Source of the DNA: Candidatus Woesearchaeota archaeon | GTDB lineage: Archaea > Nanobdellota > Nanobdellia > Woesearchaeales > UBA9642 | Reading direction: 5' to 3' | Assembly: GCA_041658255.1 (NCBI GenBank) | Contig: JBBAAQ010000001.1 | Coordinates: forward strand, 100,368 to 164,367 | DNA length: 64,000 nucleotides | Shown here: positions 5,142 through 62,328 of the stretch, one piece after another | Numbering within the stretch: position 1 is the first letter of the stretch | Layout: each line of letters opens with the position of its first letter | Position numbers and translations under genes: made by a program | The notes under the pieces: model-generated | The model's database searches: none | What the model saw: only the letters and a program-made list of their open reading frames with translations | Told to the model about the DNA's origin: nothing

Positions 5142-5230
5142 AGCAAATAACATTAATATTCGGATACTGTGATGTTATTTGCTAGATAGTAAATCGCTTT
5201 TAGATATATCCGAAAATTAAAGCGATTTAC
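5142..5230. terminator. two adjacent perfect hairpins of identical geometry (12-bp stems, 18-nt loops)
   Basis: agcaaataacat...atgttatttgct (5142..5183) and gtaaatcgcttt...aaagcgatttac (5189..5230); between the 4425..5036 gene and the downstream operon. Confidence 0.4.
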
Positions 5231-5441
5231 TATAGATCTCAGAGTCTTCAATAAGAAGCAGCACGAGATATCGATTAAAGAAGCGCTTATCTGGACTGGC
5301 GTCTGGTTTGGGATGGCGATGCTCTTCAACCTCTTCATCTGGTTTGAATTTGGTAAAGACACGGGTTAACATTTCTTTGTTATCATTATGGGGAAGCAAC
5401 AAAAACATAACATTTAAAAAGGAAAACACATTCCCTTCTTA

Positions 5442-6335
5442 GTGATAACAAGTTTAATAACTGTTTTATGGGGGATAAAAATGGCAAAGGATATAAAAGA
5501 CGAATTATCAGATAAATTATCAGGAGCACTTAAGTTCGGAAAAAAAGCTTTCGCTATCGGCAAAGAAAAGCTTGTAGAGAAAACAGAAGAACTTAAAAAA
5601 AAGTATGATAGTAGCGTTTCGATACAGACCACTGTTGGTGCAGTAAAAGGCGCGGCAGATTCATTCAAAAAAACTGTTAAAACAAAAATTGATTATAAAA
5701 TTTCTGATCTCCAAACCAAAGCAGATGGCGGCGATGAATTTGCAAAATCTATTCTTGACGTTAAAAACGCTGTTAGTGAACAATATACTACGATCAAAAG
5801 TTACTGTGCTACATTATTTAAGACAGGAGAAAAAAATCCCGTCAATGAATTTATGCCGGGATATGCGACACTCATGCAGATCATTGATGCAGAGACTGCA
5901 ACAGAAGGCAAGAAGCAATATCAACGCGACTTTAATGCAACAACCAGAATTTCTGTTGATAAAGGTGAGCGAAAAGTATTAGTAAAGAGCCATCCTTTTA
6001 TCTCTATTGAATCAAGAAAACCTGAAGAAAAACTTGAGACAAAATGCACTATTGCATTCAATTATGATGTAGGATCAGGAGTTCAATATAACAAAATCAT
6101 CGCTGACATTGCAAAGAATGCAGTTGATTTTGTGCAAAAAGAGATTATCCCAGCGCAAACAGGATCCTATAATGGCAAGAGCGCAATGATTGCTAATGCC
6201 GGAGATTCAGCTATTGAATATGTCATTGAAGCAGCATTCAATAATAATGCGTTGAAACTCTCCTATATACCGAACAATAAGTTCAGTCCTGAAGTTGTTA
6301 TCACACAGACAATACTTTCGGACGAGAAAAAATAA
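5442..6335 (+). CDS. hypothetical protein, first gene of a seven-gene unknown operon (probable start ATG at 5481 after a GGGGGA SD)
   Basis: ORF; gggggataaaaATG at 5481; lysine-rich N-terminus. Confidence 0.5.
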   Translation: MITSLITVLWGIKMAKDIKDELSDKLSGALKFGKKAFAIGKEKLVEKTEELKKKYDSSVSIQTTVGAVKGAADSFKKTVKTKIDYKISDLQTKADGGDEFAKSILDVKNAVSEQYTTIKSYCATLFKTGEKNPVNEFMPGYATLMQIIDAETATEGKKQYQRDFNATTRISVDKGERKVLVKSHPFISIESRKPEEKLETKCTIAFNYDVGSGVQYNKIIADIAKNAVDFVQKEIIPAQTGSYNGKSAMIANAGDSAIEYVIEAAFNNNALKLSYIPNNKFSPEVVITQTILSDEKK

Positions 6336-6388
6336 GCTTAGAGAAAACACACACGTAGAGTCACTCTTTATATAGCGCATATATCTCT

Positions 6389-7768
6389 ATGTATATAGGA
6401 TATCGCGCTATAGAAATCGGCAGGGATACACACAACCCTGTTTTTAAAACACACAGTGAAATAAACAAAAAAACACAAGGTGAAAAAATGGGAAATGAAA
6501 CTGATGATACTACAGAAAATAAAAATGCATTAGTAGGAACAAAACATCAAGAGAATTCTCTTGCACTAAACGTACTGAATTATTCAAATGTCAGCGCGCA
6601 ACGAGCAAAGGATGAAAATGACATTGAATCATTAGGCAAAGCACTAGATGTCGAGGTCAAGGAAGCAAGTAAATCGGCGTATGGCGGCCAGAATGGTCTT
6701 ATTATTATCGGACAGGGAATACGGCATTGGAATCTTCCCATGATAAAAAATGGACTCAAAAAGATAACAGGCCGGCGAATCAGCCTTTCAGATATTCTCA
6801 AAGCGCAATATGAAGGATTTTGCGATTCCCGGGACAGGATCAATGATCGTGTTTCAGAAAGCAAGCAATCAGTTGCCGGTCTTCATGCAAACTTAGTCGA
6901 TAATGCAAAACACCGCGTGCGGCTTGGTGAAGAACTTAAAGCACATTATAGTAATATTACTAAATATAATGATAAGATTTTTGCATTAGAAAAATCAAAG
7001 AATGAGTTGAATCCAAACGCAGAGAATTATACCACTCTTGTCGCAAATGCCGATTTGAGTCTCGCACAAAAAAGACAGGAACTGATGAATGAGACCACTA
7101 ACTATAATATTAAATCAGGACAATCCAAGATAGAGAAAGAGACCTATGATCTTTTTACTATTCTTGCAAAAGAAGCAGAGGCAGGACTCCCGCATTTGAT
7201 CATTCTTCATGAGACAGTCAAGGGTCGTGTTAATCAGGCTGATGCAGTCATCCAATATCAGTCAAAAGCGATCACTACTGCTGAAACGGTTATGGACGCA
7301 GTCAAGACATATGGAGAGATCAAAGCAACACTTGAATATTCGAATAATGCTCTTGCCTTATTCAATGAAAACTTCAGTACCATCACCGGGTATATCGCAA
7401 ATACACCTCTTATTGATGAGAAGAGTCTTGCAAATCGTGTGAATAGTATAAGAATATTGAATGAGGATACGAATAGATATCAGTCGCAATTAGCATCGGT
7501 AAATGGAAATCATGAATTTGGAGAAATGAACCTTGCTGATTGTTATTCCTTTTTGGGTTGCGAGATTACTGCAAAACCAAAAGAGATTGACGAAGCGCGC
7601 AAAAACATGCTTCTCAACAAAGGATTGCATCCGGATATGAAAAACGCCGATTTAAGCGTTGAAGAACAGAGTAAATTGACGAGAAAGGTCGAATATTGTG
7701 CAAACGTTACATCGACATTTGCACAAATGGGGGATAACCCGACACTCCGAAAATTAATTGGTCAATAA
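6389..7768 (+). CDS. hypothetical coiled-coil-rich protein (probable start 6488 after an AAGGTGA SD)
   Basis: ORF; alpha-helical/coiled-coil composition; no catalytic motif recognised. Confidence 0.5.
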   Translation: MYIGYRAIEIGRDTHNPVFKTHSEINKKTQGEKMGNETDDTTENKNALVGTKHQENSLALNVLNYSNVSAQRAKDENDIESLGKALDVEVKEASKSAYGGQNGLIIIGQGIRHWNLPMIKNGLKKITGRRISLSDILKAQYEGFCDSRDRINDRVSESKQSVAGLHANLVDNAKHRVRLGEELKAHYSNITKYNDKIFALEKSKNELNPNAENYTTLVANADLSLAQKRQELMNETTNYNIKSGQSKIEKETYDLFTILAKEAEAGLPHLIILHETVKGRVNQADAVIQYQSKAITTAETVMDAVKTYGEIKATLEYSNNALALFNENFSTITGYIANTPLIDEKSLANRVNSIRILNEDTNRYQSQLASVNGNHEFGEMNLADCYSFLGCEITAKPKEIDEARKNMLLNKGLHPDMKNADLSVEEQSKLTRKVEYCANVTSTFAQMGDNPTLRKLIGQ

Positions 7769-7803
7769 AATAGTGAGCGACCATATGGTGAATACGCGGG
7801 TCG

Positions 7804-8916
7804 GTGAGAAACATGGTTGCGCCAACTATTTTGAACTTTAATCGTGCTGCAAAACAGCACTATATTGATCAACTGACGCAATCCATGGATAAGCTTTCTT
7901 CGGAACTCTATAAATCAAACGTGGTCCGCACCAATGTTGCTTCCTATTACGAGACCTATACGAATATCATCAAGATTTATGGCATTGAGGCATATGCAGA
8001 AAATATTTCTGATCTTTGCGTGAGCAACATATCAGGATTTCCGATGTATTCGCGTATTATTGAACTCGTGAATACGCAAAAAAAATCCTTTGCAAATATG
8101 GTGCAGCTGAGAAAAGAGGAAGACATTTCGCGCGACGCCATTGAATCGCTTTATACGAACAACCAGTCCGCATTTGAAGTCTTTATATCTGAATACTGCC
8201 GAAAAAATTATTTAAGCAAACTTTCTGAATTAGTCGCTTTTAAGGACATTACTAAACTTGTTGAAGAGAAGAACACTGATGAAAGAATGGTGCGATATTC
8301 ATTTGATTATGCAGCATATCCGCTTTCAGAAATGTCCTGCGTCACTGTTTCTCTGGATGCTTCAATGATCAAGTCGATCAAACCATTCGCTTCTAAACCA
8401 AAACTTCCGCTAGATAAGATAAAGAAGTATGCAACTGAAGATGTGCGTACACTGTATGAAATACTCAAAGATCATAAGGCATATCCTGCGGTGATAGAGA
8501 AAACTCAGCCTTTCTTTAATTTTTATGGCAGGGACATCAAGGACCCGCTTATCCGCAAGATTATCTTTGATCATCCTCAATCTACAATCCTTCAATTGAA
8601 ATTTTCGAAGATTGAAAATATTGATGTGCTCCTTGCAGAAAACATCTTTCAACTGAAACGTTCTATTGATGAAATCCCTGTCTGGAGCACTAATTCCATC
8701 TATGTGTGTCCTCTTGAGATCAAAGATTTACTTGAAGATGGACTTATGGAACAATTTGAACAAGGGACCCGGGGACGTCCTGAACCTTTTAAGATCATCA
8801 CTTACAAAAAAGCATTCGGACCGAATGCAGCAGTGCAGGAATCAGACGGGAAAGAGCTCGATGTAAAAGAACCAGGCAACACAATTCATAAAATAATATT
8901 AGGAGGGGGACCATGA
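7804..8916 (+). CDS. hypothetical protein (probable start 7813)
   Basis: ORF; stop overlaps the next start (ATGA at 8913). Confidence 0.5.
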   Translation: MRNMVAPTILNFNRAAKQHYIDQLTQSMDKLSSELYKSNVVRTNVASYYETYTNIIKIYGIEAYAENISDLCVSNISGFPMYSRIIELVNTQKKSFANMVQLRKEEDISRDAIESLYTNNQSAFEVFISEYCRKNYLSKLSELVAFKDITKLVEEKNTDERMVRYSFDYAAYPLSEMSCVTVSLDASMIKSIKPFASKPKLPLDKIKKYATEDVRTLYEILKDHKAYPAVIEKTQPFFNFYGRDIKDPLIRKIIFDHPQSTILQLKFSKIENIDVLLAENIFQLKRSIDEIPVWSTNSIYVCPLEIKDLLEDGLMEQFEQGTRGRPEPFKIITYKKAFGPNAAVQESDGKELDVKEPGNTIHKIILGGGP

Positions 8917-9179
8917 ATAAGAAAGAATTATCGGACACTGTACTCATCGATGATAGAACCTTAAAAAATATTGTGGGAAAACTTGTTTTTGGGTATATCG
9001 CATATCAAATCGGATCGGTCTTAGGGGATTATTGTGCAGTTGTTGGGGCATATGTCGGTCTACGCGCGAATTATTACAAAATGCCTACGGATCAATTATT
9101 TACGATGACATTTCGTACCTATGACGAGGAAAAAAAACACGATGAAGAGCGAGAACAACAGAAGAAGAATGCGCCGTGA
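8913..9179 (+). CDS. small single-TM membrane protein
   Basis: 88 aa; hydrophobic LVFGYIAYQIGSVLGDYCAVVGAYVGL; preceded by a GGAGGGGGA SD. Confidence 0.45.
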   Translation: MNKKELSDTVLIDDRTLKNIVGKLVFGYIAYQIGSVLGDYCAVVGAYVGLRANYYKMPTDQLFTMTFRTYDEEKKHDEEREQQKKNAP

Positions 9180-9292
9180 ACAAAGGAGCATCGTGTTCAG
9201 TTTTGAACGATGCATCATCGGCATAACAATGCAGATCAGATAAAACGCAAAAACATACTACTTACTATCGGCTTAATATCGGAGAAAAACAG

Positions 9293-10690
9293 ATGACCAT
9301 ACAATCATTTATTATCGATGGAGAAAAGGCGGATCAGTATCGCGCATTCACTCAATCTATTGATAGATTCGTGGGCGAAGGTGCTGATGGTTCGTCCGCT
9401 GTTCAAATTGATCGCAGAGGTGTTGAATTGCTGCCTTTGAAACGCCACGGATTTAGAAGCCAACTCTTCTCCAAATATTTTGTTATCGCCGATCACGCGC
9501 AAATTGAATATACTGCTGAAATCCTCAAAAACCTTCATGATGACGAGTTTTTGAAGGGTCCATCGCTTATTGACGAATTGATGGTGAGTGTATACCAGAA
9601 GAATAAAGAACTTATCGATCATTTGCTTAAAGACCAGATTATTATCGGCAATGTTCAGGTGTGGGGCATGTTTGATAGTGATAAAAAGAAGTTCAGGAAC
9701 ATTTTCGATACTATTGAATTTGATCAGATTGCGCTTCGGCATGATACTGCGTATCGTGATGTTATCGGAAAACCCACTTCATGGGTAATAGAATACAGTA
9801 TTGATACGCCCAAAAAGGATATTTCCCGCCTTCGGGAAATCTCTGCAAAAATTTATGAACTTGCGATGCATCACGAGCGCATTCTGGATAAAGATTCATT
9901 GTATGCATTGTATGAGGAATATATCCCGTTCTTTAGATCATATGGCGATATCCGGACATATCACTTAGAAAATACAGAAATGCAGGTATCTTCTCCTGCA
10001 TTTTTCAAGTATGTCACGTCCGATGCGACATATTTTGCATGGAGCGGAAAGAATGGCTCGCTCATCATTAATACCGGTACGGAACTGATCAAAAATCCAT
10101 CTATCCAGACGACAACAAATGCGAAAAAAATATTGCGTTTTTTGCAGGAAAATGATTATACGAGGATAGATAAAAAAGAATTAGAATCAGTGCTCAGAAA
10201 TATCGAGAATGATTATATCATCCAGCATGCACCAAGCATCATCGATTCTGCGAATTCAACCGAGGAAGATATAAAATTTATTCAAAAGATTGCGTCTGAA
10301 ACTCCTGACACTGCTCTTGAGCGTATGCGGTTTCTGAATAAATATATGTACACGTTTTCCCATGCTGATGATAACCTTCGATTCTGGAATAGTCTGAGTT
10401 CACTGCGCAAGACAGGAGACACGTCTTTTTTGACTGCAGAAACAGTCGTGATGTTCACTAAAAATGCGACTGATTCTTTGCTTGTTGATGAATTTTTAGA
10501 TTCACTCGGTCTCACTGATTATTATCTACTCCAGAAAACAGATCTGGAAAAATTCAAGAGACGGTATCTGAGGCTGTCCCACGAGGATCGCGCTTCTGTA
10601 GCAGTAAACTTTCATATCATGATGGATAAGGGGAATGATATTTCTCCGGCTACACGTGAATTTATGACAAAAGAAGGGTGGTTTCAATGA
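9293..10690 (+). CDS. hypothetical protein
   Basis: 465-aa ORF; overlaps the next gene start. Confidence 0.5.
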   Translation: MTIQSFIIDGEKADQYRAFTQSIDRFVGEGADGSSAVQIDRRGVELLPLKRHGFRSQLFSKYFVIADHAQIEYTAEILKNLHDDEFLKGPSLIDELMVSVYQKNKELIDHLLKDQIIIGNVQVWGMFDSDKKKFRNIFDTIEFDQIALRHDTAYRDVIGKPTSWVIEYSIDTPKKDISRLREISAKIYELAMHHERILDKDSLYALYEEYIPFFRSYGDIRTYHLENTEMQVSSPAFFKYVTSDATYFAWSGKNGSLIINTGTELIKNPSIQTTTNAKKILRFLQENDYTRIDKKELESVLRNIENDYIIQHAPSIIDSANSTEEDIKFIQKIASETPDTALERMRFLNKYMYTFSHADDNLRFWNSLSSLRKTGDTSFLTAETVVMFTKNATDSLLVDEFLDSLGLTDYYLLQKTDLEKFKRRYLRLSHEDRASVAVNFHIMMDKGNDISPATREFMTKEGWFQ

Positions 10691-12861
10691 GTGATCATGT
10701 GGCCACGATGAACGATAAGACAACTATCGATACGCTTATCGAACAGACAAAGAAGGAACAAGAGCAGAAACGTATTAATTTTGTCGTTGCAGCATTAAAT
10801 AAGCTTAAAGATCAGTTTCAGATTTCAGAAAAATTCATCAAGGAACCGATTCAGAACAGTATTGATGCAGGCGCAAGCCGGATTGATATTACTGATCAGT
10901 ATGATACTGAGAAAAATCTCGGATATATCACTATTCAGGATAACGGAAGCGGCATGAGCGAGAAAACCATTCGCGAGTACCTCCTTAATAAGTTTGACAG
11001 TTCTAAGGATGCGGATATCACCAAAATCGGCAGATTCGGTGTAGGATTTGTGTCGCTTTTTGCACAGGACGATCTTGAACGCGTGATTGTACAGACAAAT
11101 GACGGTAAAGAAGAACATCGTGTCGTACTCCTCCCCCCAAAATACGGCTGGAAGGGAACTATCTTTAAAAAGAAGGGGACCATTTTGGCATCTGATCGTG
11201 GAACAACAGTCACGTTGGAGATAGCATCGAAAAAAACCGCATTTGAAGGCACCATCAAAAAAGTCTACACTGATATCGATAATTCTTGCGCGTATACTAC
11301 CGCACCACTCTTCGTACAGGGAAAACAGGCCAATAAAGAGTTTAATATCCCTGATGCAATCTACCAGATGCGTTTTGGAGGATCTGAAATTGAAGGAGTG
11401 ATAGGATATACCACTGATACTGCAGCAACATTCAGTGCCTTTTTCAATAGGCGGCTTCTGGTATCGCATGAATTTGTCCCATTGTTCTCTGAACATAAGG
11501 ACCTTTCCGTCATGGTAAGTTCGTCCTATATTGATTATAATATTTCCCGTGATAAAATTATTAAAAATAAGAAATATGCGCAGATTGTCAATCTTGTCAA
11601 AAAGAAACACGACCAGATCATCTTTTCCATGATGCGTGATATTGAATCAGAAATCAATTATGGTATCGAGGAAAGACCAGTATACCGCTCTGAACCTGAT
11701 TATTCTAAACTTCCGGATTCTCCCGGTTCTTTTTTCAATAATCTTTCATCCAACTTTACACTCACTTCATCGAATAATTGGTCATTACGGAAAAGTAATA
11801 TCGTGACCTATGAGAAATCGCTGGTGTTTACCGGCAACCAGTTTAAATTCAATAAAATAATCGGGTATGTTGAGAAATCACTGGAAAAAGAAAAAGAGCA
11901 TCGTCCGGCGCGCTCAAAGATAAAAAGGGCGTTTCATCGGATCAAAAGGCGTTTTACAAAAGATCTTGACCAGATGCTGGGGTCTCTTTCTGACGAAGTG
12001 CGTGAAACGAAATTATTTACTGCGATTAAGTACATAAATAAAGCTCCACGATTTCAGAAAGTCTCTCTTAATGAAATTATGGACCAGGCGCTCCAGTATA
12101 AAGGCATTCTTGCTGCCAATCAATATGATACATTAAAACTCAGCGAAGTATCCCTCGAGTTCTTGCGGTCAGGAAAAATACTTATTCCCGATGTTCTTTC
12201 ATTTCATGATCCGCAAAATAAACTGCTTTCAAAATTCGGGTCGTATATTAACGTTGACCGCGCATATTCGGCACCCAGTTATGAAAACGAACAGTTTCTT
12301 GAAGAATCAGAAAAGAATTTTCTGGCTGCATTTCGCACGATTGTCGATAAAAGTCCATTAAGAAAACATATCGGCGCAGTGGCGTATGGTCGCAATCTCT
12401 CAAAAGAAAAGCCTTATGATATTGATACCGTATATAATACCATCGGCAAAAAATCTGTTTATGCAATGAAACAATCATGGAAGAGTCGCTTGTCTGGAAC
12501 ATTTCTGGACCGTAAAACGATGTTTCTGAACAGGACGAATGGATATATGCAAAAAGCGATCCAATTCAGTTCAGGGAACGATTATTCATTCCTTTCCTAT
12601 GTTTCTTTACTTAACTCTCTTGCGTATGAATTGATTCCTGAGGACAAGAAAATAACCCGAAAAATGGAAAACTTTGTTGCGACCTATTTCAAAGAGGATA
12701 TCTCCCGAAAAGATTCGCTTTTGGATGAACTTGATCCGGCGGCAGGCACTGCGACAGAAGCAGTCCCGCCTTCACTCTCAGATGGACTTACCGCAGGAGA
12801 CAGAGCCGAGATTTTACAAAAAGGACTTGTTCCCTCAAAGACTTATGATGATGACTGGTGA
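10678..12861 (+). CDS. Hsp90/GHKL-type ATPase domain protein (Bergerat fold) with a long C-terminal region
   Basis: EPIQNSIDAGASRIDI (N-box), ITIQDNGSGM (G1), IGRFGVGFVSLF (G2, Hsp90-like IGQFGVGFYS). Confidence 0.65.
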   Translation: MVSMSDHVATMNDKTTIDTLIEQTKKEQEQKRINFVVAALNKLKDQFQISEKFIKEPIQNSIDAGASRIDITDQYDTEKNLGYITIQDNGSGMSEKTIREYLLNKFDSSKDADITKIGRFGVGFVSLFAQDDLERVIVQTNDGKEEHRVVLLPPKYGWKGTIFKKKGTILASDRGTTVTLEIASKKTAFEGTIKKVYTDIDNSCAYTTAPLFVQGKQANKEFNIPDAIYQMRFGGSEIEGVIGYTTDTAATFSAFFNRRLLVSHEFVPLFSEHKDLSVMVSSSYIDYNISRDKIIKNKKYAQIVNLVKKKHDQIIFSMMRDIESEINYGIEERPVYRSEPDYSKLPDSPGSFFNNLSSNFTLTSSNNWSLRKSNIVTYEKSLVFTGNQFKFNKIIGYVEKSLEKEKEHRPARSKIKRAFHRIKRRFTKDLDQMLGSLSDEVRETKLFTAIKYINKAPRFQKVSLNEIMDQALQYKGILAANQYDTLKLSEVSLEFLRSGKILIPDVLSFHDPQNKLLSKFGSYINVDRAYSAPSYENEQFLEESEKNFLAAFRTIVDKSPLRKHIGAVAYGRNLSKEKPYDIDTVYNTIGKKSVYAMKQSWKSRLSGTFLDRKTMFLNRTNGYMQKAIQFSSGNDYSFLSYVSLLNSLAYELIPEDKKITRKMENFVATYFKEDISRKDSLLDELDPAAGTATEAVPPSLSDGLTAGDRAEILQKGLVPSKTYDDDW

Positions 12862-15800
12862 CGATCATGAAAAAAATAACTAAACGCAAAACCGTCAAAC
12901 AACAGGAAACCTCCGATGGAGAATCAAACAGCGGATCAGATACTCTTGATGTGCTTGTTGATGATGGGTTTCAGCAGGTTGGCGGGGGAGATGATGATTT
13001 TATATGGAAAATCAATCAGGAAAAGATGCAATTAAAGACAACTGCAGCGCTCCTTCCTGACCCGAATGATTATATTCTTGAGTTGTTTTCTTTTGTCCAC
13101 AACACCTCACCATCAAAAATTAAAGTAAAGACAAAATATTCGCAAACAGAAATCGTCGGCGATGGTCATGGTTTTGACCTTGCAGATCTGGATTCGTTGA
13201 TGTCGGTCTTTTTTGTCGTTCCTGATGATAGTGCAGATCTCTATAAACGATTCGGAGGACTCGCGACCGCCATCTACTCTGCAATCAACACCTCTGCATC
13301 TAAGATCGTGATTGAGACGAGAAAAGACAATGTTTCTCTGCGGTATACGGTTCGGGCAGGAACATATAATGCAGCCAATCTGAATGAGCGCATAAATTCT
13401 ATTCGATTCGGAGAAAATAAGATCTCTTTTACTCATGATGAAAAATCAAGTGTGAAAAGCGGCGTGAAAATCACTGTTTCAAAAAATGTTCCGCTCAAAA
13501 ACAAAATTATTGATATTGTCCGATTTAATACCAAAGGCATTGAATTTAACAAAATAAAAAATTATTGCGCGCAGTCGCTTACGCCCACTTTTTTGAATAA
13601 TGTTGATATCTGGGATCGGGGGTCTCTGGAAAAAACTGCTTTTTCCGCCAGAACTTTTTTTACTTCTTCCAATAAATTAGAAAAATATGAATTGAAGATT
13701 ACGGAAAAGAAATTTAATGCAATACTCTGGCTTGATTCCCGTAAATATATAAATAAATTAACACTTCTCCGGTCAGGAGTCAATCATCCTTTTGATGATT
13801 CTAATGTTTATGCGATGGTTCCGCCCTTTCCCGAATCAAATCTCATCCTCGATAGTCCGTATTTCCAGGTGCACATGGATAAGTCGGGAAAACTGAAGGA
13901 GATCCCTTACCTGGCGCGTGATTTTACAAATCCATTAGAAAAACATTTTTCTGAGTTATACACCCAGATCATCAATGATTTCATTCCTCTTGCGGATAAA
14001 AAATCTTCAAAGGATTTTTCTTATGAAGATCATAGCAACTATAATCTTCTTGAGCCGCTCATTCATGAGATGATACGGCGTATGGACCATAACTTTATTG
14101 TTGATAAAGACAAGTATCCTGCTGATGATTACCGAAAAAAATTATTAGACCTGCCGCTCATCAAAATCATAACCAACCCTACTGCTCCCGACGAATATAT
14201 CTCATTTAATACACTTCTTGATACTTATAAGTCTAAACAAATCTATACTACCGGCAGGACCTTTCCCGTGCTATCTCCTGATTGGAATGAGGGCAATTTA
14301 TTGTGCAGAACTGATAATCTTTTGAAACGATTCTGCGAAGAACATGCTGTTCCGTTTCAGGATTATGATGAGATAGTTAATGCGCGGAACGCAGATCAGC
14401 GGAATAAAGAGAATCTTGAACGTAAAATTCTCAAAGAACAGCTAAAAGAGCAGAAAAAAACAGAATTCAAAAAAAAGAGAAACGCATTTTCTGAATTACT
14501 GTCATATCTTTTTAAGTGGAGTAATAATTCTACAAAAAAATCACGGGGTAATGTTTCTGTAGGCGATTCATTAAGTACTATTGTCAGTGGTGCGGGATTA
14601 ACCACTATTGGTACGGTGAGTATGGTAGGTGCAGGTCTCATCATGCTCCCGGTACTTGCTCCTCTGGCTGTTCTCTGTTCAGTAGCATATTTGGGGAAAA
14701 AAGGTAAAGAGTACGCTGCTCCGCATGCACTGTCGTTTTACACAAAGGCTCAGCAGTTCTATGCTGCGCATCTTGAAGAGAGAGTGCAAAAAACAAAGCT
14801 TTCATTCTCTGCAAAATATACTGCATTCAAGACAGGATATCGTCAGATGAAAACTCGTACCGGAACAAAAATATCACATGTCTATGATAGCGCAAGTCAT
14901 GCAGTTACAAAAACAACCAGTGCCATAGGTTCAACTGTTGCTTCAGGAGTTACTTATGTCTCGACAAAGGCCTATCATGCAGGATCAGCATGTATCCGGC
15001 CAGTTGCCCGTGCAGGTTCCTTTGTGTATTCTGAAACAATTCAGGGAATATCCGGAATGTATTCTGCGACAAGTGATGCATTTGTTTCGCTGAAAGAAGG
15101 ATATGCTCAATTTCGCCGTGATCGCAAAGAACGATTCAAAACTAATCGCATGTTGCGGACCCAGCGTGAAAAGGAGAAGATATCAGCATATGAAGCGCTT
15201 CATCCTGAAGAATCTTCTACAGAAAAAGCGCGGATACAGCGAGAGAAACGCGCTGAAAAAGACAGGCGATCAATTGAAAAACAAACGAAGAGATTAGAGA
15301 GGAAACAAGCGCGCGAAAATTTGCGGGAAAAGTCCCGGGAAGAACGCAAGAAATTAAGAAGAGATGCGCAATTAAAAGAAGAGCAGGAATTAATCGACAA
15401 ATATAATGTTCTTAAAGATCAGCATATTACAGGCGCAAAATCTATTTTTGACGCATACACCAAAGTGGTGGACAAATATGGCGTACTGAGAAACATATTC
15501 CCAAAATTTGGCTTTGCGCTGGCCAAATATCCACGGATGGATCCTAAGACAAAAAATGTCATGTTTGAAGATAAATTCTTTTTTTCTTCAAAAAAATCTG
15601 CGATGTATCCCAATTCCAATCAGCCATATACGATCAGTCTTCCCGAAGGGCTTTCGCTGTTACATCGCGATAGAACATATCAAGAGCCTCGGACTACCGG
15701 AAGGGCAGAAGTCTACGTTGACACCCGTTCAAAAGAAAATCTTGAGTATGGAAAAGCAATCGGGTCAAGAAAAGGATTTTTTGCATTAGCGCCGTATATT

Positions 15801-16190
15801 ATCGGCTTATTTGATCATGAGAAGAATCTTCGTTATTCGACTCAGGATAGGACAGAAACACTTTCTTTTTATGATTCGCGGATGAAAGATTCATATACGC
15901 AGTATAAACGGGCGTTTGATAATGAGACCCCATTAAGCATGTTGGTCCTTGACTTTTATGGAAAAGTTTTTGAGGAGATCAAAGATGCAAAAGTATATCA
16001 CGCCATTGATCTCTATCATGCAGGCAATGAAACCGCATTCATCCAGACTTTTGAAAAGCTTTCTGATGAAGAGGTCAGAAAAACAATTAAGAAATTGGTG
16101 CGGATGGATACGCCAAACCAGACTATTGATGCATATGTGGCAAATAAATGTTCTGGTCTTATTGAAGAAATCGGCAGAGCAGAGATATAA
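12858..16190 (+). CDS. large (1110 aa) protein with a degenerate GHKL-like N-terminus, TM segments and a highly charged coiled coil
   Basis: ILELFSFVHNTSPSKIKVKT..EIVGDGHGF..FGGLATAIYSA resembles a degenerate N-box/G1/G2; hydrophobic GLTTIGTVSMVGAGLIMLPVLAPLAVLCSVAYLG; K/R/E-rich repeat region; ATGA overlap with the upstream gene. Confidence 0.55.
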   Translation: MTIMKKITKRKTVKQQETSDGESNSGSDTLDVLVDDGFQQVGGGDDDFIWKINQEKMQLKTTAALLPDPNDYILELFSFVHNTSPSKIKVKTKYSQTEIVGDGHGFDLADLDSLMSVFFVVPDDSADLYKRFGGLATAIYSAINTSASKIVIETRKDNVSLRYTVRAGTYNAANLNERINSIRFGENKISFTHDEKSSVKSGVKITVSKNVPLKNKIIDIVRFNTKGIEFNKIKNYCAQSLTPTFLNNVDIWDRGSLEKTAFSARTFFTSSNKLEKYELKITEKKFNAILWLDSRKYINKLTLLRSGVNHPFDDSNVYAMVPPFPESNLILDSPYFQVHMDKSGKLKEIPYLARDFTNPLEKHFSELYTQIINDFIPLADKKSSKDFSYEDHSNYNLLEPLIHEMIRRMDHNFIVDKDKYPADDYRKKLLDLPLIKIITNPTAPDEYISFNTLLDTYKSKQIYTTGRTFPVLSPDWNEGNLLCRTDNLLKRFCEEHAVPFQDYDEIVNARNADQRNKENLERKILKEQLKEQKKTEFKKKRNAFSELLSYLFKWSNNSTKKSRGNVSVGDSLSTIVSGAGLTTIGTVSMVGAGLIMLPVLAPLAVLCSVAYLGKKGKEYAAPHALSFYTKAQQFYAAHLEERVQKTKLSFSAKYTAFKTGYRQMKTRTGTKISHVYDSASHAVTKTTSAIGSTVASGVTYVSTKAYHAGSACIRPVARAGSFVYSETIQGISGMYSATSDAFVSLKEGYAQFRRDRKERFKTNRMLRTQREKEKISAYEALHPEESSTEKARIQREKRAEKDRRSIEKQTKRLERKQARENLREKSREERKKLRRDAQLKEEQELIDKYNVLKDQHITGAKSIFDAYTKVVDKYGVLRNIFPKFGFALAKYPRMDPKTKNVMFEDKFFFSSKKSAMYPNSNQPYTISLPEGLSLLHRDRTYQEPRTTGRAEVYVDTRSKENLEYGKAIGSRKGFFALAPYIIGLFDHEKNLRYSTQDRTETLSFYDSRMKDSYTQYKRAFDNETPLSMLVLDFYGKVFEEIKDAKVYHAIDLYHAGNETAFIQTFEKLSDEEVRKTIKKLVRMDTPNQTIDAYVANKCSGLIEEIGRAEI

Positions 16191-16537
16191 AAGTATTATC
16201 TTAAGATATACGCATCACATTGTGTTCTCTCACTCATCAATCTTTGCACTCTCGGCAGACTTGATTTTTGCAATCCTCGGATTACGATCACTCTACTTTG
16301 TCATTGCAAAAGTGCATGATATCTTTCATTATCTGCAGTATGGGCTTGCATTCATCCTCGTCTTTATTGGTATGAAAATATTGATTAAGGATTTTATTGA
16401 CATCCCCATCAGCGGTAGCACTTGGTCTGGTATTCTTCACTTTGTTCGTTGCAATTATCGCTTCGATCGTGTTTCCGAGGAATGTTGTAAAGAAAGAAGT
16501 GAAGATCGAAAAGAAAAAGAAGAGACAACAACACTAA

Positions 16538-18508
16538 TCATTCCTCCTTCATATCGACGCCATACACATTTCGTATCTTACTCATCTTTTGTATTAATGC
16601 AGCAATGTCTTTCTCAGGATTCTCTTCGATACCAATGGTGATGACTGCATGGTCTGATTTGCCGAATTTGGTATTGATGGTCTTGACATTAAATTTTTCT
16701 TTCGCAATAAGGGTGAGTATCTCTGCAAGCAGGCCGATGCGATCAACCACATTGACGTGAAGATTATGGATCTCCAGTACACTCTCGCTCACCTGTGGTT
16801 TGATTTCTGATTTTGCATCATAGGCGTGCAGATTGATACAATCAGCCTTATGAATGGCAATCTTTCCATCCCGGGTCTTGAATGCACGGATTTTATCACC
16901 CATTTTTGGATTGCAACATTTTGGGATCTTCACATTAGGGACTTTTCCATTATAGAGGATGTTTCCATCCTTAAATTCGAGTCCGCGCGTCTTAGACCTT
17001 TCTAATCCCTGATTACGTTTAACTTTATCCGGAGGTTTTGGTGCTTGTTCGTATTCGATGCCGAGTGCCTTCTTGATCTTGACCTTGGTCGATGCACTCT
17101 TCACAAAACTGAGCCATGCACGTGAGGGCATGACATTCTTTTGTGTAATGATCTCAACAATATCTCCTGAAGATAATTTATGATCGAGCGGTACAATGAT
17201 TCCATTCACTTTTGCAGATTTGCAATGAGTGCCTACATCACTATGGACTGCATACGCAAAATCAACTGGTGTCGCGCCTTCAGGGAGTGCAATCGTATCA
17301 CCCTTGGGTGTGAATACAAAAATCTCTTTCTGGAATAAATCCACTTTCAATAATTCTACAAATTCATGGGCGTCTGCAGATTTTTGGCGCCAATTAATGA
17401 TTTGTTTAAGCCATTCGAGTCGTCGATCAAACCGCTTATCCTGCTCCTGCTCCTTATACCGCCAATGCGCAGCGATTCCTTCCTCTGCAGCAAAATGCAT
17501 CTCTTGGGTTCGTATCTGTACTTCAAGGATTCGTCCATGACTGCCACGTACCGTGGTATGGAGTGATTGGTAATTATTAGATTTTGGGGTCGCAATATAA
17601 TCCTTGAATTTTTTTGGGATAGGTTTCCATATCTTGTGCACAATGCCGAGTGCGGCGTAACATTCTGCAACAGTACTCACAATGATGCGTATGGCATTTA
17701 AATCATAGATCTCTGAGAATTCCTTATTATCAGTTTTCATCTTCTTATAGATGCTGTAGAAATGTTTTGCCCGTCCATACACTTCAGCTTCAATACCGCC
17801 ATCCTTGAGTGCTTGCCTGATCTCTTTGATGATAATTTCAATCTGTTTTTCGCGCTCGTCACGTTTGAGCGAAATCTTGTTCTTGAAATCCGTATAGATT
17901 TCAGGTTCAAGGAATCGGAATGAGATATCTTCAAGTTCAGATTTTACAGAATTCATCCCAAGCTTATGGGCGATGGGTGCGTAGATATCCATGGTTTCCT
18001 GCGCAACAGTTTTTTGTTTATCCCGCGACCGGTACTTGAGTGTGCGCATATTATGTAAACGGTCAGCAAGTTTGATGATGATGACACGAACATCCTTGGC
18101 TGTTGCGAGAATGATTTTACGGATATTTTCTGAACGCATATCGCTGGGTTCATATATCCGTGATTTCTCATCAATCTTTTTTAATTTAGTCAGTGAGATG
18201 ATGAGTTCAACTGTTTCCTTATCAAACTCCTTTTGGATGGTTGTGGCAGTCACTGGCGTGTCTTCAATAACATCATGGAGTAATGCTGCAGCAATCGAAT
18301 GATAATCCATCTTGAATTCTGCAACAGTCATGGCAGTATTATAACAATGCGTAAAATATTCATCACCGGATTCACGTTTCTGTCCTTTATGCGCGTCATA
18401 AGCGAATCGTACTGCCTTCTCAACGAATTTAAGGTCTGCCTTCGGATTATAGGATTCAACTTTCTTAAGCAGTACGAGAGTCTGCTGTTTAAGTTCTTCA
18501 TCAGTCAT
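16538..18508 (-). CDS. relA: bifunctional (p)ppGpp synthetase/hydrolase, RelA/SpoT homolog (HD + synthetase + TGS + ACT)
   Basis: 656 aa; HD motif LLHDVIEDT; synthetase-region similarity; C-terminal TGS/ACT-like region. Confidence 0.85.
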   Translation of the reverse strand: MTDEELKQQTLVLLKKVESYNPKADLKFVEKAVRFAYDAHKGQKRESGDEYFTHCYNTAMTVAEFKMDYHSIAAALLHDVIEDTPVTATTIQKEFDKETVELIISLTKLKKIDEKSRIYEPSDMRSENIRKIILATAKDVRVIIIKLADRLHNMRTLKYRSRDKQKTVAQETMDIYAPIAHKLGMNSVKSELEDISFRFLEPEIYTDFKNKISLKRDEREKQIEIIIKEIRQALKDGGIEAEVYGRAKHFYSIYKKMKTDNKEFSEIYDLNAIRIIVSTVAECYAALGIVHKIWKPIPKKFKDYIATPKSNNYQSLHTTVRGSHGRILEVQIRTQEMHFAAEEGIAAHWRYKEQEQDKRFDRRLEWLKQIINWRQKSADAHEFVELLKVDLFQKEIFVFTPKGDTIALPEGATPVDFAYAVHSDVGTHCKSAKVNGIIVPLDHKLSSGDIVEIITQKNVMPSRAWLSFVKSASTKVKIKKALGIEYEQAPKPPDKVKRNQGLERSKTRGLEFKDGNILYNGKVPNVKIPKCCNPKMGDKIRAFKTRDGKIAIHKADCINLHAYDAKSEIKPQVSESVLEIHNLHVNVVDRIGLLAEILTLIAKEKFNVKTINTKFGKSDHAVITIGIEENPEKDIAALIQKMSKIRNVYGVDMKEE

Positions 18509-19072: not shown

Positions 19073-20362
19073 TCACCGAAGCTGCATCAGAAAGTTATTA
19101 TTAAGATTTTTCAGGTTTGTAAGCACAATCTCTTCTATCAGGGAGGAGAATTTTTTATCATCACGCTTTTTCGACCGTTTAGTCAAATCAAGATAGGAAT
19201 CAAAATATCCTATAGGTAATTCCAAAACCAGGATATTATGCATCCGCAATATATGCAGCATCAATAATCGCGAGATTCGGCTGTTGCCGTCCCGGAATGG
19301 GTGTATTCTTTGGAATTCGTTATGAAAGAATGCTGCAAAAGATATTATTTCTGCAATATTCTTTTTCGTGCTTTCAAATAAGATATACTCTTTCATGAGT
19401 TTATCGATTTTTCTTTCTACATCTTTCCAATCACTCGTCTCAAATAAGGGATTTTTTTTTATGAACACATTTTCTTTTCTGAATGTTCCGGCGAACCCTT
19501 TTCCATTCATTGCAGTTGCATGATAGTGTAATATGAGCGCGGTGCTCAGTACAATTTTATTTTTCGAGTTTATGATCATCTGTTCTATGGCTCTCTTATA
19601 ATTGAGTGTCTCTTCGATGAACTCTGCCTTTTGATCTTCTGGCACAATATTTTTTATGAGTAATTTTTCTGTTTCAGGAAGCGTTAATGGATTACCTTCG
19701 AGGCTGAGACTTGAATAGATAAATCCTATCTCCCGATGTTTTTCTTGAATATCAAGGGATTGACTATCTATTCGCATGTTGCGACGGTATCTTTTGAGTT
19801 CACGTGTGATATCTACTATGTGTGAGCGGTTCTTTTCTTTGTAAAACTCTGTTTTTATGTTGAAATAGTTAAGGATCTTTTTTATGTATTCACTCTTCAA
19901 CAATTTGCATTTCAAAGGATTTCTCGATACGATGATGAGAAGGCCATATGTCGATAATGCATCAGTATAAAATCGGAATGTTTCGGGATGGATTTTAATA
20001 TCGTTTATGGTGAAGAATTCCTTTTTTGCCGCATATTTTAAAAAATAGAGCATCTTGGACTTGAATAGGATGTTATAGTTGATGCTGTTTCGTAAAGAGA
20101 AGGAGATAAGATTGAATAATTCTTGCGTAGATGTTGCATTGACTATGACGATATGCTTGCCGCTTCTTTTTACTAAATTCTTTTTTTCAAGAAGTAATAT
20201 GTTATTGAATATGTTCGGGTATTCCTTCCGGTCTTTGCCGAGTTCTCTAATTATTTCATTTACACGTATTTTTCCATTCTTTGCCACAATGTAAAATACA
20301 TCATAAGGCGAGACCATGATAGTTATACGTGATGCAACTTTAAAAAGGTTTCTATTTTCCAC
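19073..20362 (-). CDS. Fic/DOC family protein with an N-terminal wHTH-like region; non-canonical Fic motif HPFRDGNSR
   Basis: HPFRDGNSRISR near the C-terminus (canonical HxFx(D/E)GNGRxxR with the second Gly replaced by Ser). Confidence 0.7.
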   Translation of the reverse strand: MENRNLFKVASRITIMVSPYDVFYIVAKNGKIRVNEIIRELGKDRKEYPNIFNNILLLEKKNLVKRSGKHIVIVNATSTQELFNLISFSLRNSINYNILFKSKMLYFLKYAAKKEFFTINDIKIHPETFRFYTDALSTYGLLIIVSRNPLKCKLLKSEYIKKILNYFNIKTEFYKEKNRSHIVDITRELKRYRRNMRIDSQSLDIQEKHREIGFIYSSLSLEGNPLTLPETEKLLIKNIVPEDQKAEFIEETLNYKRAIEQMIINSKNKIVLSTALILHYHATAMNGKGFAGTFRKENVFIKKNPLFETSDWKDVERKIDKLMKEYILFESTKKNIAEIISFAAFFHNEFQRIHPFRDGNSRISRLLMLHILRMHNILVLELPIGYFDSYLDLTKRSKKRDDKKFSSLIEEIVLTNLKNLNNNFLMQLR

Positions 20363-47376: not shown

Positions 47377-48314
47377 ACAATAACATCAGAATTTTTTATA
47401 TACTTACGATATGGAGTACTATTAGTATAAATGCCTTTTTTTGTAGTGAACTGTTTTTTTACATTAAAAGAATCAGTCGTGGTTATACGAATAAATGACG
47501 AGCGGAGTAAAATATCTTTTTCATATGTGTTGAATTCGTCATATAAAAAATCAATATAGCATCCGCATCGAATAATGATTTTTTGTATTTCATAAAGCAA
47601 GTATTTTGTAGTATGTTTACAATAATCCACTTCTAGAAAATTAGGCATGCTCAAGTAAATATGACGACCGGGTTTTTTCTTCAGCAGACGCAATGATTGA
47701 TAAAGGAATAATTTTAATCCTTCAAGGCTATAGGGTGGATCAATAATAACGACGTCAAATGTATTAGTATGCATAGACATGTCTAATCTAAAATCAGCAA
47801 AAACAGTACGAACAGCAGGCATGGCACTGCGTATTTTATTAAGAACGCGTTTATCAATATCAAAAACAGTAATATTATTCATCTTGAATTTATGAAGCCA
47901 GAATGAATTAAAATCAGAATCTCCTAATATTGCAACGGCATTCTTTTGGTCATATTGTTCTTGAGCAATAATTCTCGTTCGTGCAAAAGCTGTCGCCTTT
48001 GTTGCACGAGTTTGATCAATACATTCATTATCAGAAGGTAGATCTTTATAAAAGGATTGTATTGTAACAGAATCGATGACCGCATACGGTTTTTTTGAAT
48101 GAGCAGAATTTTTCGATAACAAATACTTATTGAGTAGTTGTTCTGATTTTTTTGTGATTTGTAAACCGGATTTATTTTTTCGGAGGTAACCTTTTAGCAA
48201 TAGTGTATTTTGTAATTCTTTACTTGTAATACTAGTATTAGAAGTTTTTGCAGAGCAAACTGTATCTAATACATGGATAAGATCACGAATATCGATATAT
48301 GATTGATGCTTCAT
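47367..48314 (-). CDS. class I methyltransferase-fold protein with a DPPY motif and N-terminal wHTH-like region (DUF43/aminopropyltransferase-like?)
   Basis: VVIIDPPYS; AILGDSDFNSF; ATGA-style overlap with the upstream MetRS-like gene. Confidence 0.45.
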   Translation of the reverse strand: MKHQSYIDIRDLIHVLDTVCSAKTSNTSITSKELQNTLLLKGYLRKNKSGLQITKKSEQLLNKYLLSKNSAHSKKPYAVIDSVTIQSFYKDLPSDNECIDQTRATKATAFARTRIIAQEQYDQKNAVAILGDSDFNSFWLHKFKMNNITVFDIDKRVLNKIRSAMPAVRTVFADFRLDMSMHTNTFDVVIIDPPYSLEGLKLFLYQSLRLLKKKPGRHIYLSMPNFLEVDYCKHTTKYLLYEIQKIIIRCGCYIDFLYDEFNTYEKDILLRSSFIRITTTDSFNVKKQFTTKKGIYTNSTPYRKYIKNSDVIVQL

Positions 48315-62042: not shown

Positions 62043-62300
62043 CTCATCTCGTGCTAGACTGGGCGGTTAGTCCTCGCCTGTTACTCCAAACGGACTTTAG
62101 GGAGGGTCGAAGCCTAGGGAGCGGTTTTATGGATAGTGGCAGTCCTTAACGTACTGTCGATCCTTTGTCCTCTTTGACTTTTTTCCTTACGAACCGGATC
62201 AGACCAGGAATGGAGCAGTCCTCAGTTTTGAGAAGGGTGCTTTGAGGGTTGCGGAGGGGAGGGAAATTAAGGAACCAACTGTTCACTATCCACATCATCC
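62043..62300 (+). ncRNA. ffs: candidate SRP RNA (GC-rich island with a domain-IV-like motif)
   Basis: ccGGAUCAGACCA-GGAA-UGGAGCAGUCC resembles SRP helix 8 (GNRA-type loop, 5' UCAG / 3' AGCAG asymmetric loop); pyrimidine-rich strand opposite GGAGGGGAGGG suggests G-U-rich helices; local GC far above background; boundaries approximate. Confidence 0.45.
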
Positions 62301-62328
62301 ATCCTTAGGCGTGCACACTTCTTTCATT

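Follow-up and report, generated by a model that had tools for sequence, protein, structure and literature searches.

A woesearchaeal operon encoding a divergent Hsp90 homolog, its degenerate paralog and a probable J-domain protein: a candidate membrane-tethered chaperone machine

Introduction

What might an operon do whose products match no named system? The question is raised by a block of seven genes, denoted g1 to g7 here, in a 64,000-nucleotide stretch of contig JBBAAQ010000001.1 from a Candidatus Woesearchaeota archaeon (this whole stretch is the window, and positions are counted from its first letter). A preliminary interpretation, made from the letters of this DNA without database searches and called the sequence-only reading below, described an operon that ends in two Hsp90/GHKL-ATPase-like giants, and could not map it to any named system. 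Scans of all seven proteins against four family libraries, Pfam, PADLOC, NCBIfam and PHROGs, lead to the same outcome: nothing was recovered beyond the GHKL core of g6, a weak DnaJ match in g2 and a weak match of g5 to the PADLOC CARF_HEPN model (E 0.0019). The operon is apparently undescribed, given that no family or system model matched it in the four libraries and a limited literature search yielded no description, and it is built from known folds, namely, Hsp90/GHKL and the J domain. The answer that we favor, with a probability of roughly 0.45, is that the block encodes a membrane-tethered, asymmetric Hsp90-type heterodimer that is coupled to Hsp70 via its own J-protein. The seven genes, with lengths in amino acids (aa), are as follows.

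5481..6335, + strand: g1, 284 aa, Lys-rich N-terminus; the open reading frame (ORF) opens at GTG 5442
6389..7768, + strand: g2, 459 aa, a long helical coiled-coil-type region followed by a probable C-terminal J domain
7804..8916, + strand: g3, 370 aa, conserved family-specific protein
8913..9179, + strand: g4, 88 aa, small, with weak hydrophobicity in a Gly-rich segment; ATGA overlap with g3
9293..10690, + strand: g5, 465 aa, acidic, conserved family-specific protein
10687..12861, + strand: g6, 724 aa (727 aa if counted from GTG 10678), divergent Hsp90-family protein by profile and predicted fold
12858..16190, + strand: g7, 1110 aa, g6 paralog with a degenerate ATP site; also has a putative membrane hairpin, a charged coiled coil and, at the C-terminus, a conserved domain

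All seven ORFs lie on the + strand with the lengths first read for them (297, 459, 370, 88, 465, 727 and 1110 aa), and the same seven genes appear, at 99.7-100% protein identity, where two further assemblies of the contig (L001 from ENA and L002 from Logan) have public gene calls. Because distant homologs exist, g2, g3, g5, g6 and g7 are genes rather than chance ORFs.

A pair of divergent Hsp90 paralogs

The identity of the two terminal genes is central to any reading of the operon. The N-terminal part of g6 matches Pfam HATPase_c_3 (E 8.8e-13), which bears out the GHKL ATPase domain proposed for it, and the ATPase motifs are legible throughout: E56, N60 and D63-A-G-A, then D88-N-G-S-G-M, G118-R-F-G-V-G-F and the conserved R291. 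The catalytic Glu, the Mg-binding Asn, the adenine-contact Asp and the Gly-rich loop are all kept, and E56, N60, D63-A-G, D88-x-G-x-G, G118-x-x-G-x-G and R291 are invariant in alignments of the g6 family. Searches with the single sequence reach only the ATP-binding core of MutL, PMS2, Hsp90, sacsin, TmtA and MzaB, far below the family cut-offs. When a profile of g6 and 16 relatives (A10) was compared with the Protein Data Bank (PDB), its positions 18-525 aligned with residues 40-616 of TRAP1 (E 7.6e-16), and all of the 60 PDB matches listed belong to the Hsp90 family. The AlphaFold2 (AF2) model, in which the N-terminal half (residues ~50-320) has predicted local distance difference test (pLDDT) scores of 80-94, retrieves TRAP1, Hsp90 and GRP94 at E ~1e-17 in fold searches. 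Judged by profile and predicted fold, g6 is a divergent Hsp90 homolog and, going by its motifs, looks ATPase-active.

The case of g7 is less direct. The four libraries detected neither GHKL nor any other family in this protein, and PDB sequence searches with g7 or with its family profile gave nothing useful. Its structure model, paralogy test and motif comparison are based on a 10-sequence alignment of the g7 family (A3). Direct BLASTP of g6 against g7 finds no similarity, and profiles of three sequences reach E 4e-4 only; the relationship becomes clear only with deeper profiles, the g7 family matching the g6 superfamily profile in hhalign with a probability of 98.4% and E 1e-14 over 261 columns. 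The AF2 model of g7 (pLDDT ~85-92 for aa 70-250) retrieves full-length Hsp90s as the best Foldseek matches in the PDB, with TRAP1 (6xg6_B) at E 5.8e-16 over ~510-550 aligned columns and MutL weaker, at 1e-10. For both proteins, Foldseek alignments of 500-750 columns to full-length Hsp90s point to an Hsp90-type middle domain behind the ATPase domain, in models whose confidence is high for the N-terminal ~300 residues only and whose C-terminal parts have pLDDT below 50-70.

The two ATP sites are not alike. In the hhalign register, g7 E75 takes the position of the catalytic Glu (g6 E56) and D102 that of the adenine-contact Asp; at the position of the Mg-binding Asn (g6 N60) stands F79, a residue that varies across the g7 family, and the Gly-rich loop is degenerate, reading ‘G-LA-A’ as opposed to ‘GRFGVGF’ in g6. 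We accordingly describe g7 as a paralog of g6 with a degenerate, possibly dead ATP site that looks inactive. The claim that both tail genes are GHKL/Hsp90-like stands, for g6 on its Pfam match and for g7 on profile-profile comparison (E 1e-14) and fold (E 5.8e-16) with no library match, but the description of the two as ‘paired ATPases’ stands for g6 only, its motifs being intact where g7 is devoid of the Mg-binding Asn and of the Gly-rich loop.

The MutL matches bring up the possibility of a GHKL system of the MutL, MORC or Topo VI-B type, that is, a DNA clamp for repair, restriction or chromosome handling. The best single-sequence matches of g6 are indeed the N-terminal domains of PMS2 and MutL (E 4e-4), the NCBIfam MutL models match weakly, the g7 model also matches a MutL N-terminal domain (E 1e-10), and MutL-alpha provides a precedent for an asymmetric heterodimer. 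However, the mutL model TIGR00585 gives 35.2 bits against 180, the family profile finds Hsp90s only among the 60 PDB matches listed, in a match that extends through the middle domain, and the fold searches with both g6 and g7 place full-length Hsp90s orders of magnitude above MutL. Nuclease, DNA-binding, methylase and helicase domains are absent from the operon in the library scans, and the membrane anchoring and the J domain discussed below do not fit a DNA enzyme. An activity on DNA thus seems very improbable.

A more mundane explanation of the same similarity is that the operon encodes an ordinary housekeeping HtpG (Hsp90) with co-chaperones, too divergent to be recognized in a fast-evolving DPANN genome. 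The Hsp90 fold and profile similarity would agree with this, as would a J domain in the same operon, but the score of g6 against the NCBIfam HtpG equivalog model NF003555 is 32.9 bits with a cut-off of 371, and g7 does not match this model. Bacterial HtpG is a soluble homodimer without dedicated operon partners; here, one of the paralogs, g7, appears catalytically degenerate and membrane-anchored, the family is very rare instead of lineage-wide, and, as described below, the block interrupts another gene, terC/alx. We consider this explanation extremely improbable, in line with the sequence-only reading, which recognized no housekeeping family here.

What g6 and g7 share with the Hsp90 family (HtpG, TRAP1, cytosolic Hsp90 and GRP94), then, is the GHKL N-terminal ATPase domain followed by a middle domain. 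All ATP-site motifs persist in g6, with profile similarity to TRAP1 over ~500 residues, the family provides the best fold matches for both proteins, and its functional link to Hsp70 and J-proteins is known (PMC9478669). What sets them apart is that g6 falls far below the thresholds, with ~12-15% identity in structural alignments; that g6 and g7 appear as an obligate pair of unlike paralogs, one of them with a degenerate ATP site; that g7 adds a putative membrane hairpin, a charged coiled coil and an unrelated C-terminal domain; and that the two reside in a dedicated, extremely rare operon together with two novel proteins. Archaeal Hsp90 and Hsp70 have been proposed to be horizontal acquisitions (PMC8166112).

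A J-domain protein and the parallel with sacsin

The GHKL ATPase had been taken for the only identifiable domain of the operon, but this overlooked a probable J domain at the C-terminus of g2.

~7520-7684, + strand: predicted J domain of g2, aa ~378-432, with the HPD motif H414-P415-D416

In this genome, the Pfam DnaJ match is sub-threshold (E 0.018, 15.6 bits with a cut-off of 27.8), with the HPD motif present, and a PDB sequence search finds the J domain of DNAJB8 over the same residues (E 0.33). In a relative of the operon (L048), the protein at the g2 position matches DnaJ significantly (E 1.1e-10, 41.8 bits with the same cut-off of 27.8); in another (L047), the g2 ortholog is 26% identical and its HPD motif is invariant. 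The HPD motif is kept in three divergent operons, and we regard g2, on these sequence comparisons, as a probable J-domain protein.

In having both Hsp90-like modules and a J domain, the operon is reminiscent of sacsin, a eukaryotic protein that joins Hsp90-like repeat modules to an Hsp70-recruiting J domain and a HEPN domain (PMC3710099). Both sacsin models that match g6 do so below their cut-offs, namely, NCBIfam P_loop_sacsin (NF047352; E 8.9e-11, 42.1 bits versus 50) and Pfam SACS (PF25794; E 1.5e-5, 25.4 bits versus 32.8). Sacsin has three Hsp90-like modules, compared to two in this operon and six in the L109 relative. Unlike sacsin, the operon distributes its parts over separate polypeptides, not one 4,500-residue protein, is putatively membrane-anchored, and lacks ubiquitin-like and XPCB domains as well as a convincing HEPN domain; there is no evidence of direct ancestry.

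The C-terminal half of g7 and its putative membrane anchor

Most of what distinguishes g7 from an Hsp90 lies behind its Hsp90-like half, as the following segments show.

13050..14492, + strand: Hsp90-like N-terminal and middle domains of g7 (aa ~65-545), as delineated by AF2 and Foldseek
14592..14699, + strand: hydrophobic segment of ~34 residues with a central Pro (aa 579-614), putative membrane hairpin or anchor
15105..15467, + strand: highly charged helical region (aa ~750-870), 51% K/R/E/D by composition
15825..16187, + strand: conserved C-terminal domain (aa ~990-1110), from family conservation

The membrane-type hydrophobic segment and the long charged coiled coil had both been anticipated, and both are supported, the former by its hydropathy (Kyte-Doolittle maximum 2.34) and the latter by its 51% of charged residues. 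A comparable segment of ~30 or more residues is found at aa ~525-620 in nine of the 10 g7 family members, with P598 and G591 invariant among the three closest ones, and AF2 predicts, at low confidence, a single long helix (H789-874). In the C-terminal domain, Y1053, F1061 and L1068 are invariant in the 10 sequences, the pLDDT is 78-87 for aa ~1040-1110, and the phmmer matches obtained with g7 include C-terminal stretches.

Such a layout, in which a dimerizing nucleotide-type head is followed by a helical region, a ~34-residue hairpin with a central Pro, an amphipathic or charged coiled coil and a C-terminal domain, invites comparison with atlastin and dynamin-like proteins. Following their logic, the block could encode an ATP-driven membrane tethering or remodeling machine, in which nucleotide-dependent dimerization of the Hsp90-like heads would pull together the membranes that hold the g7 hairpin; DPANN archaea might use it at the host contact, in division or in vesicle formation. 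It would agree with this proposal that the elaborated operon is found, where the taxonomy is known, in DPANN archaea (Woesearchaeota and Nanoarchaeota), and that it takes up ~11 kb here and about 27 kb in the L048/L109 genome. Genomes of DPANN archaea are typically small. The argument is, however, wholly one from architecture: the ATP site of the g7 head is degenerate, the J domain is left unexplained, the giant partners in the high-GC modules described below have no clear membrane segment, and we know of no GHKL protein that fuses or tethers membranes. We consider tethering quite improbable as the principal function.

Distribution, synteny and a high-GC relative of the pair

An exhaustive HMMER search identified 16 matches to the g7 family among 1.84 billion representative proteins. 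A word-index search with g7 returned g7 itself only, a two-pattern scan of 185,579 species-representative genomes recovered no g7 relatives, and scans of JGI metagenomes and viral contigs with patterns from the g7 alignment yielded no confirmed locus; the negatives of these scans are pattern-limited, and even the JGI contig carrying one known member (P0023) was missed.

The synteny on which the sequence-only reading had staked its interpretation is kept in distant relatives: low-GC contigs with proteins 20-36% identical conserve the order J-protein, g3, g5, Hsp90-like, g7-like. L047 carries all five (g2-like, g3-like, g5-like, Hsp90-like, g7-like), L004 the last four (g3-like, g5-like, Hsp90-like, g7-like), and in L003, L046 and the P0023 contig, the sequence opens at or inside the Hsp90-like gene, with the g7-like gene next. 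The most elaborate version, in L048/L109, comprises 16 co-directional genes over about 27 kb, with products in the order 248, 452 and 112 aa (the last with a transmembrane segment), the J-protein, the g3-like and g5-like proteins, three tandem pairs of Hsp90-like and g7-like proteins, and four small proteins. The tandem pairs (L109 2490-17636, also in L048 and L110) measure 708+1115, 680+935 and 704+905 aa; the 708-aa Hsp90-like ATPase is labeled ‘arsenate reductase-like glutaredoxin family protein’ in one source, an evident misannotation. In every fetched archaeal-type locus with both genes, the g7-like gene lies directly downstream of the g6-like gene. Carriers with recorded taxonomy belong to DPANN (Woesearchaeota and a ‘Nanoarchaeota archaeon’, P0025), and the remaining carrier contigs are low-GC (27-43%). 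The genomic neighbors of the operon differ in every relative; in the P0023 contig, the pair is located upstream of TruD and adenylate kinase, neighbors as here in a different arrangement.

Two other Woesearchaeota metagenome-assembled genomes (MAGs) contain translationally coupled pairs of an Hsp90-like gene and a partner (793 and 782 aa in L012, 9554-14280; 633 and 715 aa in L016, 134-4179). The partners in L012 and L016, as well as L005 and L006, are in register with the g7 profile, but not significantly so (hhalign E 0.025-0.15), and were not counted as g7 family members; the L012 and L016 pairs, in which the N-terminus of the partner bears a weak resemblance to g7 (hhalign E 0.03-0.1), may represent a third, more divergent branch of the pair. 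No close relative, that is, none beyond the GHKL core, was found on viral contigs, and phage genomes and plasmids yielded no match. The sequence-only reading noted the lack of integrase, capsid and terminase hallmarks, and the PHROGs scan likewise shows no phage hallmark; with neither such hallmarks nor viral-contig, phage-genome or plasmid matches, a phage or plasmid origin of the block was rejected.

On high-GC contigs, including MAGs of Myxococcota and Pseudomonadota, the core pair takes the form of a two-gene module that consists of an Hsp90-like ATPase (~530-600 aa, 25-29% identical to the N-terminal 300 residues of g6) and a giant partner. For at least 27 high-GC GHKL genes, the next same-strand ORF matches the g7-family profile at its N-terminus, with E down to 1e-22 in a local database. 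Gene order and close coupling are the same as in the archaeal pair, but the partners, usually 1,200-2,500 aa, are much larger and share only ~100-300 N-terminal residues with g7. This core pair is a self-contained module with variable neighbors, and its members match no named family or defense model beyond the ATP-binding core.

Operon structure and the smaller genes

The seven genes form, as had been proposed, a co-directional, translationally coupled operon, although one of the three overlaps first read probably needs correction. The ATGA overlap of g3 and g4 at 8913 is as described, and the GTGA overlap of g6 and g7 at 12858 holds if g7 starts with GTG 12858, the other candidate being ATG 12867, six bases past the g6 stop; the overlap at 10678 is probably misplaced, the likely start of g6 being ATG 10687, the start used by public gene calls, which produces an ATGA overlap with the g5 stop. 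The start of g1 is probably ATG 5481, preceded by GGGGG and yielding 284 aa as in the L001 gene call, and that of g3 is probably 7813 (367 aa).

Two of the remaining genes belong to the conserved order. In the operons of L004, L047 and L048/L109, the position of g3 is taken by a homolog (phmmer E 2e-23, 7e-33 and 1e-5, respectively), and the gene that immediately precedes the Hsp90-like gene is a g5 homolog (BLASTP E 4e-21 for L004). For neither protein did the single sequence or the family profile find a relative in Pfam or the PDB. A word-index search with the concatenated g3 and g5 alignment returned only a 98%-identical copy of g5, Lys/Glu-rich words having probably swamped other candidates.

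The other two genes, g1 and g4, are not demonstrably conserved, and no homolog of either could be shown in the L048 operon. g1 matches nothing in Pfam, PADLOC, NCBIfam or PHROGs, the related loci contain no demonstrable homolog of it, and hhalign of g1 against the upstream genes of L048 was not significant. g4 has no counterpart between the g3-like and g5-like genes of L004 and L047, and the 112-aa transmembrane protein that L048 encodes elsewhere in its operon is unrelated to it. Although first read as a small membrane protein, g4 shows weak hydrophobicity only (maximum Kyte-Doolittle 1.36 over 19 residues). The 113-nt gap between g4 and g5 is the only sizeable intergenic gap in the operon and contains an imperfect stem-loop (GCATCGTGTTCAG…TGAACGATGC) at ~9185-9215, which may be an internal processing or attenuation site.

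A possible chaperone relay at the membrane

How would such an operon work as a chaperone machine? Given that the g6 and g7 genes are coupled and constantly adjacent, and that the pair is triplicated as a unit, we infer that the two proteins form a heterodimeric clamp. Its closure would be driven by ATP binding and hydrolysis in g6 alone, comparable to the asymmetric cycles of Hsp90/TRAP1 and MutL-alpha, while g7 would tie the clamp to the membrane. By way of its J domain, g2 would switch the Hsp70 of the cell (DnaK) to its high-affinity state, such that a protein substrate is captured and then handed over to the g6/g7 clamp. This would amount to an Hsp70-to-Hsp90 relay built along the lines of sacsin; in bacteria, Hsp90 and DnaK cooperate directly (PMC9478669). 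In this scheme, g3 and g5 could be family-specific adaptors or substrate receptors, and the candidate purposes include assembly or quality control of membrane and surface proteins, host-contact structures, and invader sensing.

Several observations weigh against this scheme. Heterodimerization, ATPase activity and membrane insertion are all things that we infer, and the two AF2 models of the pair are of low quality beyond the N-terminal halves (mean pLDDT values of 55 and 63). The J domain of g2 scores below the Pfam threshold in this genome (15.6 bits versus 27.8), and no Hsp70 gene was found near the operon, the Hsp70 signature motifs being absent from the 64-kb window and all fetched loci. 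The giant partners at the high-GC loci have no clear membrane segment, and no g2-, g3- or g5-like genes are present there; because these modules occur without such genes, the core pair can apparently work without them. Because g3 and g5 have no recognizable fold, an effector could also hide there, and conflict systems, more typically than genes for proteostasis, show the kind of patchy and apparently mobile distribution observed here.

The site of insertion and the defense hypothesis

The location of the block bears on whether it was acquired. The sequence-only reading placed it between TruD, upstream, and a convergent relA-like gene, downstream, and both flanks are confirmed, the latter gene encoding a long RelA/SpoT homolog (RSH). 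Family matches identify genes for DUF4349, CFA synthase and TruD on the upstream side; the convergent long RSH is followed downstream by Fic, adenylate kinase and PGK, so that the flanking genes within the window make up a housekeeping neighborhood, not a defense island. Immediately at its borders, the block is bounded by two pieces of one gene, which the sequence-only reading had overlooked.

5238..5369, + strand: 5' remnant of a terC/alx-family membrane-protein gene, ending in KEALIWTGVWFGMAMLFNLFIWFEFGKDTG and a stop; left boundary of the inserted block
16207..16537, + strand: 3' remnant of this terC/alx gene, with a frameshift near 16420; marks the right-hand border of the inserted block

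The 5' remnant corresponds to positions 21-62 of 303 in the NCBIfam TerC/Alx model TIGR03718 (E 1.9e-10), and the 3' remnant to positions 227-302 of 303 in the same model (E 4.7e-20) and to positions 127-177 of 178 in Pfam TerC (E 7e-8). Because these same-strand fragments flank the block, the seven genes replace approximately positions 63-226 of terC/alx. An insertion or replacement best explains this interruption, and since the middle of terC/alx is replaced by the block, the latter was probably acquired as an accessory cassette. It is not bracketed by att-like direct repeats, its GC content does not differ from that of the flanks, and scans for sigma-70 promoters and terminators gave counts at or below the shuffled expectation, such scans being uninformative for an archaeon. 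Just upstream of the 5' remnant, at 5186-5233, there is a perfect 15-nt inverted repeat, ATAGTAAATCGCTTT … AAAGCGATTTACTAT, with an 18-nt spacer, which may once have served the disrupted terC/alx gene as a regulatory element or terminator.

The sequence-only reading had likened the architecture to that of conflict/defense or envelope-assembly systems, and the probably acquired character of the block brings to the fore the possibility of an anti-virus or anti-mobile-element defense (conflict) system. The Hsp90-like pair would then serve as an ATP-dependent sensor or switch, the J-protein would couple it to the chaperone status of the host, and either a component in the membrane (the hairpin of g7, or g4) or an unrecognized domain in g1, g3 or g5 would be the effector. 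The extremely patchy distribution (16 matches in 1.84 billion proteins and none in the two-pattern scan of 185,579 genomes), the varying genomic position among relatives, the replacement of the middle of terC in this genome, the tandem triplication of the pair in another, and the self-contained high-GC core pair with its variable neighbors all argue for such a role. Precedents exist, too, in that GHKL domains regulate known defense nucleases (PMC12137116), and phage sensing by bNACHT25 is mediated by DnaJ (PMC12169576).

The resemblance to known defense proteins does not, however, reach beyond the ATP-binding core. Tiamat TmtA, Mza MzaB and GHKL-Shedu share this core with g6 and are accessory and patchy as well, and the GHKL core of g6 resembles the N-termini of TmtA (E 4.7e-10) and MzaB. 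The TmtA match covers only model positions ~59-149 of 1486, the rest of TmtA (models of 1,300-1,650 aa) being unmatched, and the MzaB match only positions 31-100 of 500, with no Mza partners and no nuclease domain in the operon. The PADLOC matches are thus limited to a core of ~90 residues, with no match to a partner or full-length model for either the archaeal or the high-GC pairs.

A further pointer toward a role in conflict comes from the viral library, in which phage T4-type rIIA proteins, active in phage-host conflict, rank highest by structure (E 1.9e-12 over ~500 aligned columns). These GHKL-type proteins associate with the membrane, their gene adjoins that of a partner (rIIB), and how they act at the molecular level is still unknown. 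The similarity is one of fold only, tblastn finding nothing in 50,697 phage genomes and the PHROGs scan giving no match to an rIIA family; Hsp90s in the PDB have a lower Foldseek E-value (5.8e-16 versus 1.9e-12), but the libraries differ in size and content. Against a defense function, moreover, the library scans detect no nuclease, protease, NADase, pore or other effector domain, the neighborhood (TruD, RelA/SpoT, adenylate kinase, PGK) is of the housekeeping kind, and close relatives on viral contigs, like matches in phage genomes or plasmids, are lacking. We consider a defense function the main alternative, albeit an unlikely one, and prefer the membrane-tethered Hsp90-type machine.

Other features of the window

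Several further features of the window are of interest in their own right.

1613-2728, - strand: cyclopropane-fatty-acyl-phospholipid synthase homolog (Pfam CMAS, E 7e-90), a bacterial-type lipid-modifying enzyme in an archaeon
16538-18508, - strand: full-length long RSH with HD, synthetase, TGS and ACT domains, in a DPANN archaeon
19073-20362, - strand: protein of 429 aa with a Fic/DOC domain, encoded two genes downstream of RelA/SpoT and adjoining adenylate kinase
32112-36980, + strand: giant protein, 1,622 aa, with a subtilase S8 domain and a type I phosphodiesterase domain
48311-49618 and 49548-50837, - strand: protein of 435 aa whose class I (Met-type) tRNA-synthetase domain is only partial, and the radical-SAM gene that it overlaps
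54327-60530, + strand: giant protein, 2,067 aa, with MopE-type metal-binding motifs
62047-62320, + strand: archaeal signal recognition particle (SRP) RNA (Rfam RF01857, 116.5 bits)

The SRP RNA marks the window as archaeal, which the sequence-only reading had missed, and the housekeeping proteins encoded here are identical to NCBI entries MFA5796530-MFA5796549 from a 187.9-kb contig of a Candidatus Woesearchaeota MAG, so that the source is a DPANN archaeon. Long RSH proteins are unusual in archaea, and the one found here is likely a bacterial acquisition. The two giant proteins are likely surface proteins, and the overlap of a partial tRNA-synthetase gene with a radical-SAM gene is an unusual combination.

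Implications

A genome-reduced archaeon here devotes ~11 kb to a pair of very divergent Hsp90 paralogs, of which one appears active and the other dead and membrane-anchored, along with a private J-protein and two novel proteins, and one of its relatives about 27 kb. Should g6 and g7 form a heterodimeric clamp, the pair would be a natural experiment in Hsp90 asymmetry and part of an apparently undescribed membrane-anchored Hsp90-type machine. The core pair also defines an unnamed two-gene module that is represented on dozens of high-GC metagenome contigs as well as in MAGs of Myxococcota and Pseudomonadota, so that a single characterized member would annotate many genes.

The parallel with sacsin extends the potential relevance of these observations, given that Hsp90-like modules combined with a J domain are also found in a protein that is mutated in the human ataxia ARSACS and whose mechanism is still debated. 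It is conceivable, although rather unlikely, that the operon represents a hitherto unrecognized kind of DPANN-specific machine, namely, an asymmetric Hsp90-type heterodimer embedded in the membrane and equipped with a private J-protein and two novel subunits, which would remodel proteins or membranes in the cell envelope, for instance, where the archaeon touches its host, and would be a prokaryotic, operon-encoded counterpart of the sacsin design. If so, it would offer an experimental handle on sacsin-type chaperones and on the unnamed module of an Hsp90-like ATPase and a giant partner. If, instead, the operon is a defense system, it would be a new class built from chaperone-type parts.

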